64,000 nt of DNA from IMG/VR virus record IMGVR_UViG_3300020195_000020, positions 10,146 to 74,145 of that record, one strand, 5' to 3'. Under the pieces are notes generated by a model. That model saw only the letters and a program-made list of their open reading frames with translations. It made no database searches and was not told the DNA's origin. Positions 16,079-61,397 of this stretch are shown here, one piece after another. The first letter of the stretch is position 1; every line of letters starts with the position of its first letter. Origin of the DNA: a virus. The translations under genes were made by a program, and so were the position numbers.

Positions 16079-16491
16079 AGCGTTGCATCCCAGTAGTTGT
16101 CAACAAGCAACTCACCTGCCTCGGGTGCGGTATCCCGTTCTCGGGTCCGTTCGCCATCTCCGAGGCCGAGATGATTGCGATCGGCAGCGACCTCAACAAG
16201 ATTCACCGGCCGTGCGGTCACGTAGCTATATTGCGAGTTGCGCAGAGCGCCAACCTACACGCGGCGAATCAAGGGATCACGCAGTCGGCGCCACCGCAAC
16301 CGAGAGTGGACTACGCCGGGTGCGTTCATCGCGGTGAGCCGTCGCGGCTAGAGGAATGCCCGACCTGTAGCGGCAGGGTGCAGGTCAAGGTGTTTAAGTG
16401 CGCCGTCCACGGCGAGTGCCAGCTCGAAGCCAAGATCGGCGGCATCAACGTCTGCGGCAGTAGCTGCGAGCAGTTCAGTCCGCCGACCTAA
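16075..16491 (+). CDS. Small Cys-rich protein
   Basis: 138 aa with CxxC motifs and C-terminal CVHRG..CPTC..CAVHGEC..C..C; overlaps upstream stop. Confidence 0.5.
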   Translation: MKRCIPVVVNKQLTCLGCGIPFSGPFAISEAEMIAIGSDLNKIHRPCGHVAILRVAQSANLHAANQGITQSAPPQPRVDYAGCVHRGEPSRLEECPTCSGRVQVKVFKCAVHGECQLEAKIGGINVCGSSCEQFSPPT

Positions 16492-16720
16492 ACTCGCAGC
16501 CGCAGACCTGACAGCGGTTCAGGTAGGTCGACGGGGCGACGCGGATCGAGGATGCCTCGCAGTATGGGCACGGCTTGCGAGAGAATTCCGGAACCGACGC
16601 GATGACGGGAGCGGACTTGGCCGCTGGCTCATCGCCCGGCAAACGAACGAACAGCATCGCCGCCATCACGATTGCCGCGAAGGCTCCAACGATCCAGATT
16701 AGGGCCGCGCCAGGGTTCAT
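16475..16720 (-). CDS. Single-pass membrane protein with C-terminal Zn ribbon
   Basis: MNPGAALIWIVGAFAAIVMAAMLFV TM segment, CPYC...CQVC; ATGA-coupled to the DUF1559 gene. Confidence 0.55.
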   Translation of the reverse strand: MNPGAALIWIVGAFAAIVMAAMLFVRLPGDEPAAKSAPVIASVPEFSRKPCPYCEASSIRVAPSTYLNRCQVCGCEFRSAD

Positions 16721-17892
16721 GGGATGTCGGTTTCGCTTGGTATGACTGTTGACCATGGCGGGCCGCAGAGAGCCGGCATCCCGCTTTGACCAGCGTACAT
16801 GGTTTCCGTCCCGTGACTCGACATGAGGATCGCGTAGATCGAGTACCTGATGTCCTCGCCGATAAACCTTACCGAGCCATCGGCATAGGCCACATTGAAC
16901 CCGCCTGGATGGTTGCTCGCCGGCCGGGCGAACCACCACGCTTTAATATCGGCCGCAGTGACGGCACCAACTGCCGGCGGCAATATCGGCATGCGGTTGA
17001 CTTGAATCGGCGGAAGATCAGGGCCAGCAGGGGGAACGCCCCAGAGCGCTCCCAGACGCCACTCTTCGTCGCCGTAGTTGCGCCAGGTCATGTTCCAGTT
17101 TACCGTCACCGGGATGCCCAGCGTCTCGCCAATCTCGGCGCCGCGATTCTCAGCGAGCATGATCGTCCGGCTCACGCCATCCTGCCTGGTGAGCGTCGCC
17201 GGGTCCATTTTGACGAACGGCTTCTTGTTGCCCGCGGAGCCCGCGTATGCCTGATTAAAGCAGAGCCCGTTCGCGGGCCAGTCGAGCGGGATTGATTGCG
17301 CGTTGTCCACGTCGGCCATCCCGGCGTTCGGGAAGTAGTTCATGGCCGGGCCTTGCAGCGTGGTTACGGAATCGCTGGGGCACAGCAGGACTTCGATCGG
17401 TCGGTTCGGCAGATTGCCCGTCATGCGATACTGCGTATAGATGTCGTTGCGCTCCATATAAGGCAGCAGAGCCGGCACCCAACCAACGTACCCAGGTGTC
17501 GGCACGCCGGTCGGATTTTCACGGGCGTAGACCAACCCAGGAAAGTAGTCCTTGCTGGTGCAGACCTGGATCATCGCCATCGCGGTCTGCCGGATATTGT
17601 TCGTGCAGGTCGCGCGCCGGCCGGCCTCGCGGGCTCGTTGCACGGCCGGAATCAACAGGCCCATCAGCATGGCGATAATGGCGATCACAACCAGCAACTC
17701 GACGAGGGTGAAGGCGCGCCGTTTCATTTTGTTACCTTGAATTGAAGTGCATGCCCGGCGAAGCGTTGCTCGCACCCAATTCGAGAGGTCCATGCCGGAC
17801 TTCTCGGCTTCGGCAAGAAACGCTTGCTTCTCTTCCTTGGTCAGGCGCAGCTCGCAGCGTGCGGTGCGCTCAGGTCGAATCGTTGTGGCCAT
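16717..17892 (-). CDS. Ribbon-helix-helix domain fused to a DUF1559 prepilin-type N-terminal cleavage/methylation (H-X9-DG) protein
   Basis: N-terminus RTARCELRLTKEEKQAFLAEAEKSGMDLSNWVRATL (RHH), then KRRAFTLVELLVVIAIIAMLMGLLIPAVQRAREAGRRATCTNN and HPGGFNVAYADGSVRF; possible second start ATG 17727. Confidence 0.85.
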   Translation of the reverse strand: MATTIRPERTARCELRLTKEEKQAFLAEAEKSGMDLSNWVRATLRRACTSIQGNKMKRRAFTLVELLVVIAIIAMLMGLLIPAVQRAREAGRRATCTNNIRQTAMAMIQVCTSKDYFPGLVYARENPTGVPTPGYVGWVPALLPYMERNDIYTQYRMTGNLPNRPIEVLLCPSDSVTTLQGPAMNYFPNAGMADVDNAQSIPLDWPANGLCFNQAYAGSAGNKKPFVKMDPATLTRQDGVSRTIMLAENRGAEIGETLGIPVTVNWNMTWRNYGDEEWRLGALWGVPPAGPDLPPIQVNRMPILPPAVGAVTAADIKAWWFARPASNHPGGFNVAYADGSVRFIGEDIRYSIYAILMSSHGTETMYAGQSGMPALCGPPWSTVIPSETDIP

Positions 17893-17895
17893 GCC

Positions 17896-17928
17896 GTACA
17901 GTGTACGTACGACGCGAACTTGATACAA
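17896..17928 (-). promoter_or_regulatory. Sigma70-type promoter giving a near-leaderless mRNA, overlapped by a palindrome
   Basis: TTGTAT-17 nt-TACACT, then 7 nt to ATG 17892; palindrome GTACAGTGTAC (17896-17906) covers the -10. Confidence 0.6.
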
Positions 17929-17958: not shown

Positions 17959-18162
17959 CTATTGGCTATACCCGAGCTCGCCGCCGGCCGGCTCGCGGGG
18001 ATCGTCGCCGCTCTTCACCTGGTTGATAATGCGCACCAGGGCGCGATCGCCAATATGCGGCGCGTGGGCCCGCAAGATCCGCTCGACCCGGCCATGCTCA
18101 CGCTCTAGCGCCGCGTCGACAGCTTGATCGACTGCCGCTTGAACTTCCTCGTTGGTGGCCAT
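17959..18162 (-). CDS. Small hypothetical protein
   Basis: 67 aa, SD GGGAGG, downstream of integrase. Confidence 0.5.
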   Translation of the reverse strand: MATNEEVQAAVDQAVDAALEREHGRVERILRAHAPHIGDRALVRIINQVKSGDDPREPAGGELGYSQ

Positions 18163-18231: not shown

Positions 18232-19224
18232 TCAACGACTGAGGCCGGCTTTTCGGCCGAACCAGCGGCGAACCAGTGCGATCGTGCGGCGTGTAAGTCC
18301 AATTCGTGGCAATTCTTGGGTGACTGCTGGCAAGCCTGGCCTGGGAAGTATTTTTGCCGCCGACTGCTGTCCGCAGATGGTGGGGTCGAGGTACTTTCGG
18401 GTCGTCTTGCCGTCCTCGTGTCCGAGCATCAATTGAGGATCGAGTCCCAGCCGCTTGCCGTGCGTTGCGGCGCTCTTGCGGAGACAGTGAAAGCGGAATT
18501 GGCGACTGCTCGGCAGGCCCGCGCGGCGCTGCACTTCGGCGTAGCGATAGTAGATGTGGCTCTCGGAAAATGGCCAAGGAAAGACTTCGTCGCCCTTGGA
18601 GAAGGTCCGCAGCCGCCGCAGTAGCGCCACCGTCTCGGCATGCAGCTCGTAGGTCATGTCTTTGCGTTTGCCTTTGCGGAATTCGGCCGGCACCCGCACC
18701 CAGCCGCCGTCCAGGTCGAACCATTCCCATCGCGATTTACGCAGCGGAGAAATCCGCTCGGCGGTGTCCCAGCCGAGGTTGTGCAAAGTCTCCCACCAGA
18801 GGCCCGCCGGCACGGGACCAATGTAGCCTGGCGTGGCGCGGCAGGCGGCAAACAGCGACTCGAGTTGCGGCATGGTCCAGGCCCGTGGATCGCGATCGGG
18901 CTGCACTTCCGGGTCGACGTCGGGCCATTCCTGCAGAAAGCCTTTGCGGCAGGCAAATCGCCAGATGGCCAGGAGCTGCGATCGCTCCTTGTTGGCGCTG
19001 GATGGGCTCAGGCCGCGGCCCATCATCCACGCCATGAGCCGCGAGACGTTGTCGTCGGTTAGATCGACGAGCAATGCGTCGCGCTGGAGAAAGGTGCTGA
19101 AGTTTCGCACCGAGAACGCGTACAGCCGGCGAGTGTTGTCGGCGCGGCCGCGCAACTTCAAGGGGATGTACTGGTCCTCAAAAAACGACTTTAACGACTG
19201 TCCAGGACAAATCATTGCGTTCAC
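18232..19224 (-). CDS. int: Tyrosine recombinase/phage integrase
   Basis: SAM-like N-domain; catalytic R (TAERISPL), K (RKGKR), HxxR (FHCLRKS), LGH and Y (TTRKYL). Confidence 0.9.
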   Translation of the reverse strand: MNAMICPGQSLKSFFEDQYIPLKLRGRADNTRRLYAFSVRNFSTFLQRDALLVDLTDDNVSRLMAWMMGRGLSPSSANKERSQLLAIWRFACRKGFLQEWPDVDPEVQPDRDPRAWTMPQLESLFAACRATPGYIGPVPAGLWWETLHNLGWDTAERISPLRKSRWEWFDLDGGWVRVPAEFRKGKRKDMTYELHAETVALLRRLRTFSKGDEVFPWPFSESHIYYRYAEVQRRAGLPSSRQFRFHCLRKSAATHGKRLGLDPQLMLGHEDGKTTRKYLDPTICGQQSAAKILPRPGLPAVTQELPRIGLTRRTIALVRRWFGRKAGLSR

Positions 19225-19605: not shown

Positions 19606-19678
19606 AAGAAAATCGGCGGGGCCGGTGCAAGCCGGGCGGCGCTGCTAACGAGCCGTTTGCAACCCCGCCGATTTTCTT
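19606..19678. repeat. 16-bp perfect inverted repeat (long hairpin)
   Basis: AAGAAAATCGGCGGGG (19606-19621) / CCCCGCCGATTTTCTT (19663-19678). Confidence 0.7.
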
Positions 19679-19680
19679 GA

Positions 19681-19709
19681 TTGAAAAGTCTAATTCTTGC
19701 CTTACAATT
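19681..19709 (+). promoter_or_regulatory. Promoter plus operator O1 for the HTH gene
   Basis: TTGAAA-16-TACAAT, ATG 7 nt later; AAGTCTAA-N8-TTACAATT overlaps it. Confidence 0.6.
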
Positions 19710-19715
19710 GGGGCC

Positions 19716-19955
19716 ATGTCAATGTCCATCGGAACACTGCTAACGACCCAGGAAGTCGCTGACCTGTTAGGGGTTAATACCTCTCGGGTGAGCCAGCTCG
19801 TGGGTGAGGGACGGATGCGGCCCAAGCAACGGGTCGGATCCGCAATGCTGTTTGAACGCGACGATGTGATAGCTTTCTCGAAAATACCGCGGGCGACCGG
19901 TCGCCCGAAGGATTCTGCAAAAAAAGTTCGAAGGTCTATTGCAAAGTCTAAGTGA
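19716..19955 (+). CDS. HTH_17/MerR-like DNA-binding protein (repressor or excisionase)
   Basis: LLTTQEVADLLGVNTSRVSQLVGEG...RVG...LFERDDV; divergent from int. Confidence 0.8.
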   Translation: MSMSIGTLLTTQEVADLLGVNTSRVSQLVGEGRMRPKQRVGSAMLFERDDVIAFSKIPRATGRPKDSAKKVRRSIAKSK

Positions 19956-20840: not shown

Positions 20841-21146
20841 ATGCACTCGACTCAGCAGTTTCTCAATTTCGAAGGAGCGATTCCCCTGGCCCGCGCGACC
20901 GACCATGAGTCGAGCCACGCGGCGGCCGAGCGGAAGGAATCCAGCGGCTGCGCCAAGCAAGACCGGGTGCGGGTGCTGGAATCCCTGCGGAAACTCGGCA
21001 AAGCGGTGACCAGCAAGCAACTCGCGGCCGTGATGGGCGTCGACCGGTACATGACCGCCAGGCGGTTACCGGACCTGGCCAAGATGGGCCTCGTGAAGTG
21101 CGAGGCCTACGAAGGCCGCGAGCTGATGTGGAGTGCGAAGGAGTAG
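20841..21146 (+). CDS. Winged-helix DNA-binding protein
   Basis: ARATDHESSHAAA...TSKQLAAVMGVDRYMTARRLPDLAKMGLV. Confidence 0.7.
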   Translation: MHSTQQFLNFEGAIPLARATDHESSHAAAERKESSGCAKQDRVRVLESLRKLGKAVTSKQLAAVMGVDRYMTARRLPDLAKMGLVKCEAYEGRELMWSAKE

Positions 21147-21210
21147 GGGCCGGCGAACGATTCGCCCGCCAGGACAGGAAGTTTCAATACCGTCAGAGAA
21201 GGAGCGCGTG

Positions 21211-21393
21211 ATGCTGGTTCTATCCAGGAAAAAGAACGAATCGATCGTGATCAATAGCGACATCACGATCACGGTCGTCGAAATCCGCGGTGACAAGGTC
21301 CGCCTCGGCATCGAGGCACCCAAGGACATTCCCGTTCACCGCCGCGAAGTGAAGGACGCGATCGATCGCGAGATCGCCGCCCACAAAACGTAA
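21211..21393 (+). CDS. csrA: Carbon storage regulator CsrA/RsmA homologue
   Basis: MLVLSRKKNESIVINSDITITVVEIRGDKVRLGIEAPKDIPVHRREV; SD AAGGAG. Confidence 0.95.
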   Translation: MLVLSRKKNESIVINSDITITVVEIRGDKVRLGIEAPKDIPVHRREVKDAIDREIAAHKT

Positions 21394-33789: not shown

Positions 33790-35481
33790 ATGATCAAACT
33801 CGACCCTAAGTTTCGCTTTGCCGACCTGTTTTGCGGTGCCGGCGGTTTCACCAGCGGCGCCGAGGCCTCGGGCGTGGCCCGCGGCGTGCTGGCCATCAAT
33901 CACTGGCGGCCGGCCGTCTCGACCCACCTGCAAAACCATCCCCACGTGCGGCACGTCTGTGCGTCGATCGATCACGTCGACCCGCGGGACTTCGAGAAGG
34001 ATGGGATCAACCTGCTCTTGGCGTCGCCGGAGTGCGTGTTTCACAGTGTGGCCCGCGGCGGCCGGCCAGTGGATGACCAGCGCCGCGCTACCGCCTGGTG
34101 CGTGCCGCGATGGCTGGAGGCGATCAAACCCAAGTGGGCGATCATCGAGAACGTCCGAGAGTTCGTCGATTGGGGGCCGCTGGGATGCGACGACCGCCCG
34201 CTCAAGAGCAAGAAGGGGCTGATCTTCCAAGCCTGGGTGCAGGCGATCCGGGCGCTGGGCTATCACGTCGAATGGAAACTCTTGAACGCGGCCGACTATG
34301 GCGAGGCAACCAAGCGGATTCGCCTGTTCGTCGTTTGCCGCCGCGGCCGCTCGACCAAGCCAATCCCCTGGCCAACACCCACGCACGCCAAAGAGAACTG
34401 GACGCCGGCCTGGAAGATCATCGACTGGTCCAAGCCCTGCCCAAGCATCTTCGGCCGCAAGCGGCCGCTGGCCGAAAAGACGCTGCGACGCATCGAGCAA
34501 GGACTGCGGAAATTCTGCCGGCCGGAGATCGTCGAACCCTTCCTGGTGAAGATGCGCGGCACCAACAACGCCGCCAGCGTGCACGACCCGGCGCCGACAG
34601 TCACCGCCGGCGGGAATCACCTGGGCGTGGCCATGCCATTTCAACTCAAGGCCGCTGGCCGCTGCCCGGGCCTGACAAAACCGATCACAGACCCTCTGCC
34701 ATCAGTTTTGGGGCGAGAGAACCACGCGATCGTCGTGCCTTTCCTTACGCAGTTTCACAATGGCCCAGACGGCGACCAGCGAAACTATCCGGTCGACCAG
34801 CCGGTCCCGACGCTCGATACGCAGAATCGCTATGGCGTGGTGGCGCCGTTCATCGTGCCCAACTTCGGCGAGCGAGACGGCCAGGCCCCGCGGACCCACG
34901 ACGTCAACGATCCGCTGCCGACGGCCACCAGCCACGGCGCCGGCGGTCTGGTGTTCCCGTTCATGGTCGATACGAATTGGGGTGAAAACCGCGACGGTCG
35001 GAACCGTGTGCACGATCTCAATTCGCCTTTACCAACTGTGACAACGCAACACGGTCAGGCCGTTGTCGCGCCCTTTCTGCTGCCGCGCCAGGGCCACTAC
35101 GACTGTCAAAAGGACAAGCCGGCCAAGGGCGTCGACGAACCGCTGGGAACGATCCTGGCAAATCACTCGCCGGCCCACCTGGTGCTGCCATTCCTGACCT
35201 CTTACTACGGCACCGGGCACGCGATGCCGGTGACCGAGCCGATCACGTCGCTGACCACCAAGCACCGCCACGGCCTGGCCCTGGTGGAAACCATGCGGGA
35301 GTTGGGAATCGTCGACATCGGTTTCCGGATGCTCGACGTCGACGAGCTCGCCGCCGCCCAGGGCTTTGCCAGCGACTATTTCCTGCATGGCACCAAGGCC
35401 GAGCAGGTCAAGCAAATCGGCAACGCGGTCTGCCCGGGAGTGGCCCGGGCGCTGGTCGAAGCCATCGGGAGGGCCGCATGA
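33790..35481 (+). CDS. DNA cytosine-5 methyltransferase with internally repeated variable region
   Basis: DLFCGAGG; SPEC; ENV; RIRLF; C-terminal AQGF...QIGNAV. Confidence 0.95.
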   Translation: MIKLDPKFRFADLFCGAGGFTSGAEASGVARGVLAINHWRPAVSTHLQNHPHVRHVCASIDHVDPRDFEKDGINLLLASPECVFHSVARGGRPVDDQRRATAWCVPRWLEAIKPKWAIIENVREFVDWGPLGCDDRPLKSKKGLIFQAWVQAIRALGYHVEWKLLNAADYGEATKRIRLFVVCRRGRSTKPIPWPTPTHAKENWTPAWKIIDWSKPCPSIFGRKRPLAEKTLRRIEQGLRKFCRPEIVEPFLVKMRGTNNAASVHDPAPTVTAGGNHLGVAMPFQLKAAGRCPGLTKPITDPLPSVLGRENHAIVVPFLTQFHNGPDGDQRNYPVDQPVPTLDTQNRYGVVAPFIVPNFGERDGQAPRTHDVNDPLPTATSHGAGGLVFPFMVDTNWGENRDGRNRVHDLNSPLPTVTTQHGQAVVAPFLLPRQGHYDCQKDKPAKGVDEPLGTILANHSPAHLVLPFLTSYYGTGHAMPVTEPITSLTTKHRHGLALVETMRELGIVDIGFRMLDVDELAAAQGFASDYFLHGTKAEQVKQIGNAVCPGVARALVEAIGRAA

Positions 35482-60002: not shown

Positions 60003-61397
60003 TCAGGCGGCCCGTTGCAGGGTGACCAAGCACGTGTTCACGTTCGTGCCGGACTCGGCGAACGTGCCGGCGGGCAGATCCCAAAACCGACCGCCCATCC
60101 GCTTGACCAGCTCCCGAAACGCGACGGCTTTAGCGTTCTCGCGGAACTCGACGCCGGCGGACATAACGGCCACCAGCTTGCCACCTGGCGCCAGGAACTT
60201 GACCGCGTGGGCGACGTGGTCAATATCCCGCTGGAGATCAAACGGCGGATTCATATAGACACGATCGAACAGGCCCAGCGAATCGACCGACTCGTCCAGG
60301 AAATCGGCCGTGCGAGTTTGCAGACCCTTGGCCCGCAGTGTGGCCGCCCGCTGGAGATTCACTTCGACGCAAGTAATATCGGCCAGCTTGTAGCGTTCGC
60401 GGACGGCGCAAGCTATGGCCCCCTCGCCGGCGCTCGGCTCCAGGACCGTAAACGGCTCGTCCCAATATCGGGGCGATGCGTTCTCCATCATCCGGCCGAC
60501 GACATCATCGGGCGTCGGGTAAAACGCGCCATTCTTGGCCAGGGTGCGATTCGGATTCGCCAGGGGGTCGCCCTTGCCGGCCACTTCATAGGCCGCGCCG
60601 ATGACGTCGCCGTAATACTCGGCCAGCAGCTTGTTACACTCCCGGACCAGGTCGTCACGCTTGAACCAGATATGCAGATTCCCGTTCGCAAAGATGCGGA
60701 TCCGGAAAAACTCATGCTCGACCACGGCCGGCCGCGACCGGCGCGCGGCGGTTTGCACCCCGGCCACGATGCCGGACTCTCGCTCCGGCAGCTCCTTGCC
60801 GGCCAGACGGCAAAACACCCGCTCGACGTCGCGGAGCGTATCATCCTGCCGGCGGTGGTGGTTCCAATACCCGCCCGCCTCAATGGCGTGGTTCAGCACG
60901 ATTCGTGAGCCGATCTTGAAACCATCGTGCGACCGAAACCGGCGATCCAACGACGAAAACGCCTCGGCAATCCCGCGCTGAAACAGCATATCGGCATCGG
61001 CCAGCAGACCGACCAGAGTAGCGCGGGCCGTGCTGGCGACCAATTCCGGCGGATCCTTTTGCAGTTGGCCGCGGAATTGTTCGCGGGCCTTGCGGTCCAT
61101 CAGCTTCTCGAACCCATGATCTTCGATCAGATGCTGCCAGGCGATGGCGTCAACGTGCTTCTTGACCTTCTCCATAAACCGCTCGGGCTCGCGCTGGTAA
61201 GAACACATGGCCGAGCAAATATCCGAAGTCGGCTTGTTCTCGCCGGGGACCAGATCCATCGCATCGTGCAGCAGGTCGTAGGCCTCGCGGAAACGGGACA
61301 GCGCGGCGTTGCGCTGGCTTTCGGCCCGCTCGATCACGTTCGACTGGATCAAAGCGGCGGCGGCGGGGCGGTCTAGTTCGGCAGTAATAATGCTCAT
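60003..61397 (-). CDS. DUF4942-like domain fused to an N6-adenine DNA methyltransferase
   Basis: FRSHDGFKIGSRIV; FFRIRIFANGNLHIWF; FYPTP; VLEPSAGEG; MNPPF; FAESGTNV. Confidence 0.88.
   Translation of the reverse strand: MSIITAELDRPAAAALIQSNVIERAESQRNAALSRFREAYDLLHDAMDLVPGENKPTSDICSAMCSYQREPERFMEKVKKHVDAIAWQHLIEDHGFEKLMDRKAREQFRGQLQKDPPELVASTARATLVGLLADADMLFQRGIAEAFSSLDRRFRSHDGFKIGSRIVLNHAIEAGGYWNHHRRQDDTLRDVERVFCRLAGKELPERESGIVAGVQTAARRSRPAVVEHEFFRIRIFANGNLHIWFKRDDLVRECNKLLAEYYGDVIGAAYEVAGKGDPLANPNRTLAKNGAFYPTPDDVVGRMMENASPRYWDEPFTVLEPSAGEGAIACAVRERYKLADITCVEVNLQRAATLRAKGLQTRTADFLDESVDSLGLFDRVYMNPPFDLQRDIDHVAHAVKFLAPGGKLVAVMSAGVEFRENAKAVAFRELVKRMGGRFWDLPAGTFAESGTNVNTCLVTLQRAA

Follow-up and report, generated by a model that had tools for sequence, protein, structure and literature searches.

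The Fused Gene and Its Domains

The window described here is the stretch of 64,000 nucleotides (nt; G+C content, 63%) that spans bases 10146–74145 of the 74,145-base-pair (bp) IMG/VR record IMGVR_UViG_3300020195_000020. The record has direct terminal repeats at its ends, and its genes include those for a major head protein, a terminase-like protein, DNA methyltransferases, and a tyrosine integrase; its source is a temperate phage of planctomycete bacteria. The minus strand of the window encodes P0001, an open reading frame (ORF) of 391 residues in which a ribbon-helix-helix (RHH) domain, a fold typical of small DNA-binding regulators, is joined to a prepilin-like DUF1559 protein. The elements of the fused gene are as follows.

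16717–17892, minus strand: P0001, the fused ORF of 391 residues (RHH, linker, prepilin leader, DUF1559); its stop codon TGA (16717–16719) overlaps the ATG of the next gene
17728–17892, minus strand: P0003, the RHH domain and an 8-residue linker, 55 residues in all, with the β-strand RCELRLT and helices at residues 19–32 and 36–52
17653–17727, minus strand: the inner ATG (17727), the basic leader MKRRA, the predicted cleavage site Ala60/Phe61, and then FTLVELLVVIAII (N_methyl, residues 56–80)
16849–17640, minus strand: the DUF1559 (SBP_bac_10) pilin-like domain, predicted to be periplasmic and located by profile matches, with HX9DG near its end

The original prediction, made from the letters of the DNA alone, was of one uninterrupted frame running from a 55-residue RHH (ATG 17892) into the MKRRA leader of a prepilin-like protein. 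This is borne out, as no stop codon separates the RHH part (17892–17728) from MKRRA and the FTLVELLVVIAII that follows it from the inner ATG. In profile searches, the NikA-like RHH family of Pfam (PF21983) matches residues 9–43 with 28.6 bits when the 55 residues are scanned in isolation (cut-off, 27) and with 24.4 bits, below that cut-off, within the whole 391-residue protein. The prepilin motif at residues 56–80 scores 30.8 bits with N_methyl (PF07963) and 24.4 bits with TIGR02532. DUF1559 (PF07596) covers residues 85–348 with 100.7 bits against a cut-off of 23.3, and the HX9DG domain of NCBIfam (TIGR04294) covers residues 325–344 with 38.8 bits against a cut-off of 19. The same Pfam and NCBIfam scans of the fused protein gave no match to a winged-helix family. 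Searched against the PDB, a profile built from relatives of the RHH matches NikA (2ba3, E 8e-4) and the KacA/TacA antitoxins, and the RHH sequence alone matches no PDB sequence.

The RHH part has the layout of its fold, that is, a β-strand, helix A, a G-x-x-x-S/T turn (here SGMDLS), and helix B. The AlphaFold (AF2) model, with a predicted local distance difference test score (pLDDT) of 82, contains two short helices (residues 19–32 and 36–52; pLDDT 72–87), a linker, a 52-residue pilin helix (residues 63–114), and a globular domain. In this model of the monomer, the RCELRLT strand region is a coil, in line with a strand that takes shape only upon dimerization. A Foldseek comparison of the whole model with the PDB gave no significant match, the only rows being weak ones to pilins and RHHs. 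The features of a class III signal are present at the junction, with Ala60 followed by F61-T-L-V-E65 and then by the hydrophobic run LLVVIAIIAMLMGLL. The long form lacks the short basic leader (6–30 residues) of this class, its leader being 60 residues long and harboring a folded domain, while the form that begins at the inner ATG has one (five residues). As a short leader is among the defining features of prepilins, the long form is not classed as a typical prepilin, although it may still work like one.

A Second Fusion and the Reality of the Frame

The exact 391-residue protein occurs on four contigs (JGI/IMG and Logan) and in the ESM Atlas, and the exact 336-residue form that starts at the inner ATG occurs on four further contigs (JGI/IMG and ENA). 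Since different assemblies return the same letters, the fusion is no assembly slip. The openness of the frame by itself is little evidence, because 38% of all 60-codon stretches in the window are free of stops. What goes beyond chance, judged by sequence comparison, is the presence of a recognizable RHH in the open frame together with the repetition of the whole arrangement in a second protein.

This second protein, P0023 (411 residues; Logan, five contigs), was the one find of the search for other RHH, N_methyl, and DUF1559 fusions that the original prediction had proposed. It combines PF21983, PF07963, and PF07596 and is the only such protein among the 120 best DUF1559 relatives. Compared as protein sequences, P0023 and P0001 are 42% identical in an alignment that extends from Met1 to the last residues. 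Their RHH domains are 38% identical (21 of 55 positions), and both retain the DNA-reading strand R-x-E-L-R-x-T-K-x-E-K as well as the G...S...R..L.RA positions. The linker of P0023 is 7 residues longer, giving a leader of 67 residues, and the junction of 19 residues, KMKRRAFTLVELLVVIAII, is identical in the two proteins.

The fusion is very probably genuine and maintained, as a detectable RHH has been kept in frame across a divergence to 42% identity. The different linker lengths indicate that P0023 and P0001 do not stem from one recent stop loss. The original prediction would have been refuted by homologues that always carry a stop between the RHH and the pilin; the deeply diverged P0023, being fused, answers this test. 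Stand-alone RHH proteins of the NikA-like, CopG, and TacA types share the fold signature and the length of the P0001 RHH, with relatives of 61–107 residues being 44–54% identical over the domain. These related RHHs normally have 60–120 residues and end 5–25 residues after helix B, whereas the P0001 frame continues into a membrane protein. Thus, a working RHH at this locus would have to be a fusion protein. The evidence for the fusion is sequence-only and comes from two gene clusters.

It is very improbable that the RHH stretch is a relic that is never translated, or that its missing stop is an error, and that only the 336-residue prepilin matters. The high frequency of stop-free stretches would fit this explanation, as would the composition of the RHH part, in which the G+C content at third codon positions (GC3) is 0.62, compared with 0.77 in the DUF1559 part and 0.79 ± 0.05 in the phage genes. 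It would also account for the lack of a Shine–Dalgarno sequence before the RHH start, for the sub-threshold RHH score in the whole protein (24.4 bits against 27), and for the failure to find close RHH relatives. A relic or an error is difficult to reconcile with the identical sequence in several independent assemblies, with the isolated RHH, which scores above the cut-off and whose profile matches NikA and TacA-type RHHs, and with P0023, in which the frame is open and an RHH still detectable at 42% identity.

Rarity of the Join

The join of an RHH to a prepilin is rare. With the RHH of P0001 as query, no further fused relatives were found among proteins of 215–685 residues, and the same length-limited search with the RHH of P0023 returned only P0023 itself. 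A HMMER search with the RHH over 1.84 billion representatives gave 15 weak matches, none of them joined to DUF1559. IMG/VR gave no match to the single protein; when searched with an alignment, it yielded 80 pilin/DUF1559 loci, all of them devoid of an RHH both in frame and in the flanks. No match was obtained among GenBank phages (tblastn) or in a first scan of GTDB genomes, and the best 80 genomic DUF1559 loci from a second GTDB scan had no RHH in frame or in the flanks. In 802 Planctomycetota genomes (401 Pirellulales and 401 Planctomycetota), the RHH had about 130 matches, all of which were stand-alone or joined to non-prepilin sequences. In the ESM Atlas, only plain N_methyl/DUF1559 clusters were found besides the long form itself.

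Several candidates were discarded in the course of these searches. None of the long open frames around RHH matches in the 802 genomes was a prepilin; they were either GC-rich run-ons on the upstream side or other proteins. Long "leaders" of 43–89 residues in other relatives were low-complexity sequences or mis-called starts rather than domains, and the cluster members P0138 and P0139 were unrelated fragments.

Residues 56–391 of P0001 are an ordinary DUF1559 prepilin and residues 1–55 an ordinary small RHH. What is new is the domain architecture.

Unfused Relatives and Evolution

In the DUF1559 tree, P0001 falls into a clade of nine proteins with good support (98/97; 41–52% identity), in which P0023 pairs with P0025 (100/100) and P0001 takes an unresolved position next to P0019. 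P0019, on the JGI contig L082, is certainly unfused, having an ordinary start after noncoding sequence and no RHH upstream. P0020 and P0024 are preceded by a 21-residue run that is not an RHH.

Two functions encoded as neighboring genes are seen in the Pirellulales locus L169 (258–1488, plus strand), where a NikA-like RHH gene is followed by a TAA stop, 28 nt, and a DUF1559 prepilin gene on the same strand. The order is that of the phage fusion, but the two genes are separate and in different frames. The L169 RHH scores 35.4 bits and is 44% identical to the phage RHH, while the DUF1559 proteins share only 25% identity. A close relative of the L169 RHH is encoded in another genome (L168), with a prepilin gene 882 nt downstream. 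That makes two cases among 32 loci, a proportion that is not statistically compelling. In L169 and L168, the two functions are nevertheless linked as separate genes, and their RHHs may be dedicated regulators of some DUF1559 genes.

Because the nearest DUF1559 relative is unfused and a two-gene RHH/DUF1559 case exists in L169, the fused arrangement is a derived and rare state. Either the fusion is old and has disappeared repeatedly, which the intact inner start would make easy, or the RHH-leader module has passed from one paralogue to another, which could happen by way of the almost invariant N-terminal pilin sequence.

Both alternative frames are closed at the junction (17725–17740, minus strand), where the inner ATG is overlapped by a TGA of the +1 frame (ATGA) and a TAA of the +2 frame lies 4 nt ahead of this ATG. 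The step between the fusion and a layout of two coupled genes is therefore one inserted or deleted base. A free RHH of 50–60 residues would result from such a 1-nt change or from ribosomal frameshifting.

The Inner Start and Regulatory Signals

Three short elements bear on the expression of the fused gene.

17900–17928, minus strand: promoter-like TTGTAT (17928–17923), a 17-nt spacer, and TACACT (17905–17900), matching the consensus at 7 of 12 positions
17895–17907, no strand assigned: 13-bp palindrome CGTACAGTGTACG, 2 nt before ATG 17892, a candidate RHH operator
17734–17738, minus strand: AAGGT, a weak Shine–Dalgarno-like site 6 nt before the inner ATG 17727, with an A-rich spacer

The RHH start had been credited with a promoter of its own, TTGTAT-17-TACACT. 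The hexamers and their spacer are present, but as a promoter the match is at chance level, with sites as good occurring 3.75 times per kilobase in the window, and a promoter scanner run on the window did not call it. It was accordingly rejected as evidence of a sigma-70-like promoter. A transcript from this site would begin at the ATG or right beside it and be leaderless, because only 7 nt separate the ATG from the end of the −10-like hexamer.

The palindrome described at the RHH start is also found and extends to 13 bp. The sequence GTAC is scarce in the window (83 observed versus about 215 expected from base composition), and the sole cluster of three GTAC within 20 bp (17896–17910) lies at the palindrome, making it a reasonable, if post hoc, candidate for the operator of the RHH. 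The scarcity of GTAC may reflect restriction avoidance in a phage carrying several DNA methyltransferases (33790–35481 and 60003–61397).

The AAGGT before ATG 17727, noted earlier as a possible source of an unfused form, is present. The inner Met is conserved in both fusions, and the unfused P0019 has AAGGA 7 nt before its start. Since the inner ATG is preceded by AAGGT just as the P0019 start is preceded by AAGGA, the inner start is plausibly live; the resulting product is the 336-residue P0002, which some gene callers choose.

These features would also suit a nested gene that makes two products without proteolytic coupling. The DUF1559 prepilin would then come mainly from the inner ATG, and the RHH would be a former upstream regulator gene that lost its stop, leaving a tolerated read-through fusion in which the RHH works, or is degraded, independently of prepilin peptidase. 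Such a gene would explain why the inner Met and an AAGG-type site are retained in both fusions at the point where unfused relatives start, why some gene callers prefer this start, and why a single indel lies between the coupled two-gene layout and the fusion; the two-gene layout of L169 is in keeping with it as well. There is a precedent in Geobacter, which makes two prepilin isoforms from nested starts (PMC6201914). This reading is nevertheless rather unlikely. The two fusions have diverged to 42% identity and still keep the RHH signature, which is unexpected if fusion is harmful to the regulator, and the site of action of a membrane-anchored RHH is left unexplained.

The Genomic Setting of the Fused Gene

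The fused gene is part of a same-strand lysogeny block in the order integrase (19224–18232), 67-residue ORF, fused gene, and 81-residue gene. The neighboring genes and one counterpart from an unfused relative are listed below.

18232–19224, minus strand: tyrosine integrase, heading the same-strand lysogeny block
17959–18162, minus strand: ORF of 67 residues that separates the integrase from the fused gene and whose ATG is preceded by a GGGAGGG site
16475–16720, minus strand: small gene (81 residues) encoding an N-terminal transmembrane (TM) helix and a CxxC...CxxC zinc ribbon, with an ATGA overlap with the fused ORF
L082 5274–5522, plus strand: zinc-ribbon counterpart after P0019, encoding a TM helix and CxxC...CxxC, ATGA-coupled to the DUF1559 gene

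The fused gene had been placed beside the integrase; it does lie near it and on the same strand, 340 nt downstream, although the 67-residue ORF intervenes. The lysogeny block and the large tail-like genes converge. The fused gene thus has the setting of a moron, being located in a complete phage genome, near the integrase, and outside the structural operons.

The zinc-ribbon protein is 39% identical to that encoded by the gene after P0019, which has the identical ATGA overlap. On this basis, the DUF1559 gene and the TM/zinc-ribbon gene are a conserved, previously undescribed pair of this DUF1559 clade. The phage carries the pair at the usual position of lysogenic-conversion genes.

Other genes of the window include one for a global regulator of the RNA-binding CsrA family (PF02599, E 4e-25; 21133–21393, plus strand), which comes just after a MarR-like small winged helix-turn-helix gene (20841–21146) and before a putative phage metallopeptidase (21545–22489). 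An HTH_17 (excisionase-type) gene (19677–19955, plus strand) is divergent from the integrase across a gap of about 450 bp, which probably harbors attP or the lysis-lysogeny switch.

About 80 viral contigs in IMG/VR (L002–L081) carry DUF1559 or other type IV pilin-like genes, and several of them (e.g., L040 and L081) have two to four such genes in tandem. Therefore, pilin-like genes are common cargo of these viruses.

Proposed Release of the RHH by Prepilin Peptidase

When a prepilin inserts, its leader stays inside the cell and its hydrophobic helix comes to span the membrane; A24 peptidases cleave prepilins at the cytoplasmic face after a Gly or Ala at position −1. If the long product of the fused gene behaves in the same way, it would insert into the inner membrane with the RHH and the basic KMKRRA in the cytoplasm and DUF1559 outside. 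A host A24 prepilin peptidase would then cleave between Ala60 and Phe61 and free a basic RHH of 60 residues and 6.9 kDa. The freed RHH would dimerize and bind DNA, most likely at the GTAC-rich palindrome, which lies across the start region of its own gene, and expression of the block would thereby be tied to the amount of prepilin made and processed. Together with the coupled TM/zinc-ribbon protein, the mature DUF1559 protein would serve in lysogenic conversion at the host envelope. An ordinary prepilin with a 5-residue leader is probably made as well, from the conserved inner ATG.

The release model as a whole is possible but falls short of being probable. Topologically, release of the RHH is sound. 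The cytoplasmic location of the RHH, part of the original prediction, is suggested by the basic KMKRRA that precedes the hydrophobic helix. No prepilin peptidase was found in the phage, and all four genomes tested from the Pirellulales, the likely host group, encode at least one A24 peptidase, which supports the expected reliance on a host enzyme. The Ala at position −1 is shared by 26 of the 115 DUF1559 relatives with a recognizable motif. The predicted released piece, with 60 residues, a mass of 6.9 kDa, and an isoelectric point of 10.5, contains the complete RHH. The remaining steps of the original prediction are inferences: the 60-residue folded leader may be cleaved, the RHH may repress its own gene, gene control may be coupled to pilin processing, and the pilin-like part may serve in superinfection exclusion. 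The observation underlying the original prediction is thus confirmed, and its interpretation is partly supported.

The size of the leader is the weak point of the model, in which cleavage is a prediction. Described prepilin leaders have 6–7 residues (type IVa) or 15–30 residues (type IVb) (PMC6201914), and a literature search gave no prepilin leader that is longer than about 30 residues or folded. Further points weigh against the explanation as a whole. The RHH part has an atypically low GC3 (0.62), and its start has no Shine–Dalgarno sequence. Only two fused clusters are known; they are not sisters in the DUF1559 tree, where the nearest relative of P0001, P0019, is unfused. The proposed promoter does not exceed chance, the palindrome has no significance by itself since a match of equal stringency arises in 38 of 100 shuffles, and the conserved inner Met may mean that the plain prepilin is the main product.

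The leader also bears on whether the fusion protein is cleaved at all, since a folded leader of 60 residues may exceed what a prepilin peptidase can handle, known leaders having 6–30 residues (PMC6201914). P0001 could instead be an uncleaved bitopic membrane-bound regulator with a ToxR/CadC-like layout, in which the anchored RHH binds DNA and the periplasmic DUF1559 domain senses or binds a partner. The domain order matches, with an N-terminal DNA-binding domain, one TM helix, and an outside domain. This reading is quite unlikely, as the cleavage and methylation motif (Ala at −1, Phe at +1, and Glu at +5) is strictly kept and identical in both fusions, the membrane linker is short (8 residues, or 13 including MKRRA), and the fold is an RHH, not the winged helix of ToxR and CadC.

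Relation to Known Systems and Implications

The closest relatives of the pilin-like part are the DUF1559/HX9DG prepilin-like proteins of Planctomycetota (PF07596 and PF07963), which share with P0001 a basic leader, the motif [GA]-FTLVELL, a long N-terminal helix, and HX9DG. In contrast to these, P0001 is phage-borne and has a 55-residue RHH ahead of the leader. Across the 115 relatives with a recognizable motif, the median called leader is 13 residues, and the few long ones are low-complexity.

Alternative leaders on one prepilin are known from PilA of Geobacter sulfurreducens, in which nested starts give two prepilins with different leaders, both cut by PilD (PMC6201914). The long Geobacter leader has 29 residues and no folded DNA-binding domain (PMC6201914), unlike the 60-residue RHH leader of P0001.

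The fusion is predicted to resemble ToxR/CadC-type regulators and factors freed by regulated proteolysis, such as those of the anti-sigma RsiV pathway (PMC4183432), in having a DNA-binding or regulatory part that a single helix anchors to the membrane and whose release or activity depends on an envelope event. The fusion differs from these and from site-1/site-2 systems by its RHH fold and by the predicted A24 peptidase cut at the cytoplasmic face. P0001 fits the ToxR/CadC domain order, with a topology inferred from the basic KMKRRA before the helix, and differs from that class in lacking its OmpR-type winged helix, the DNA-binding domain being an RHH. A full-text search of the literature found no regulator that is freed by prepilin peptidase from a 60-residue folded leader.

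DUF1559 is the largest paralogous family of Planctomycetes, with 68 copies in P. limnophila, two of which are essential (PMC10632474). The release model, if true, would provide a first experimental handle on this family. It remains doubtful that prepilin peptidase acts here as a signaling protease, such that host processing alone liberates a phage repressor-type RHH into the cytoplasm. If it does, the fusion would encode a transcription factor that a class III signal peptide delivers, the first of its kind. Prepilin leaders have so far been seen as short and disposable, and prepilin peptidases would gain a second role in regulator release. The single cut would constitute a membrane-to-genome route distinct from site-1/site-2 proteolysis. 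The lysogeny block of the phage would then be wired to a host envelope process, and phage gene control would read the state of the pilin and secretion machinery of the host.

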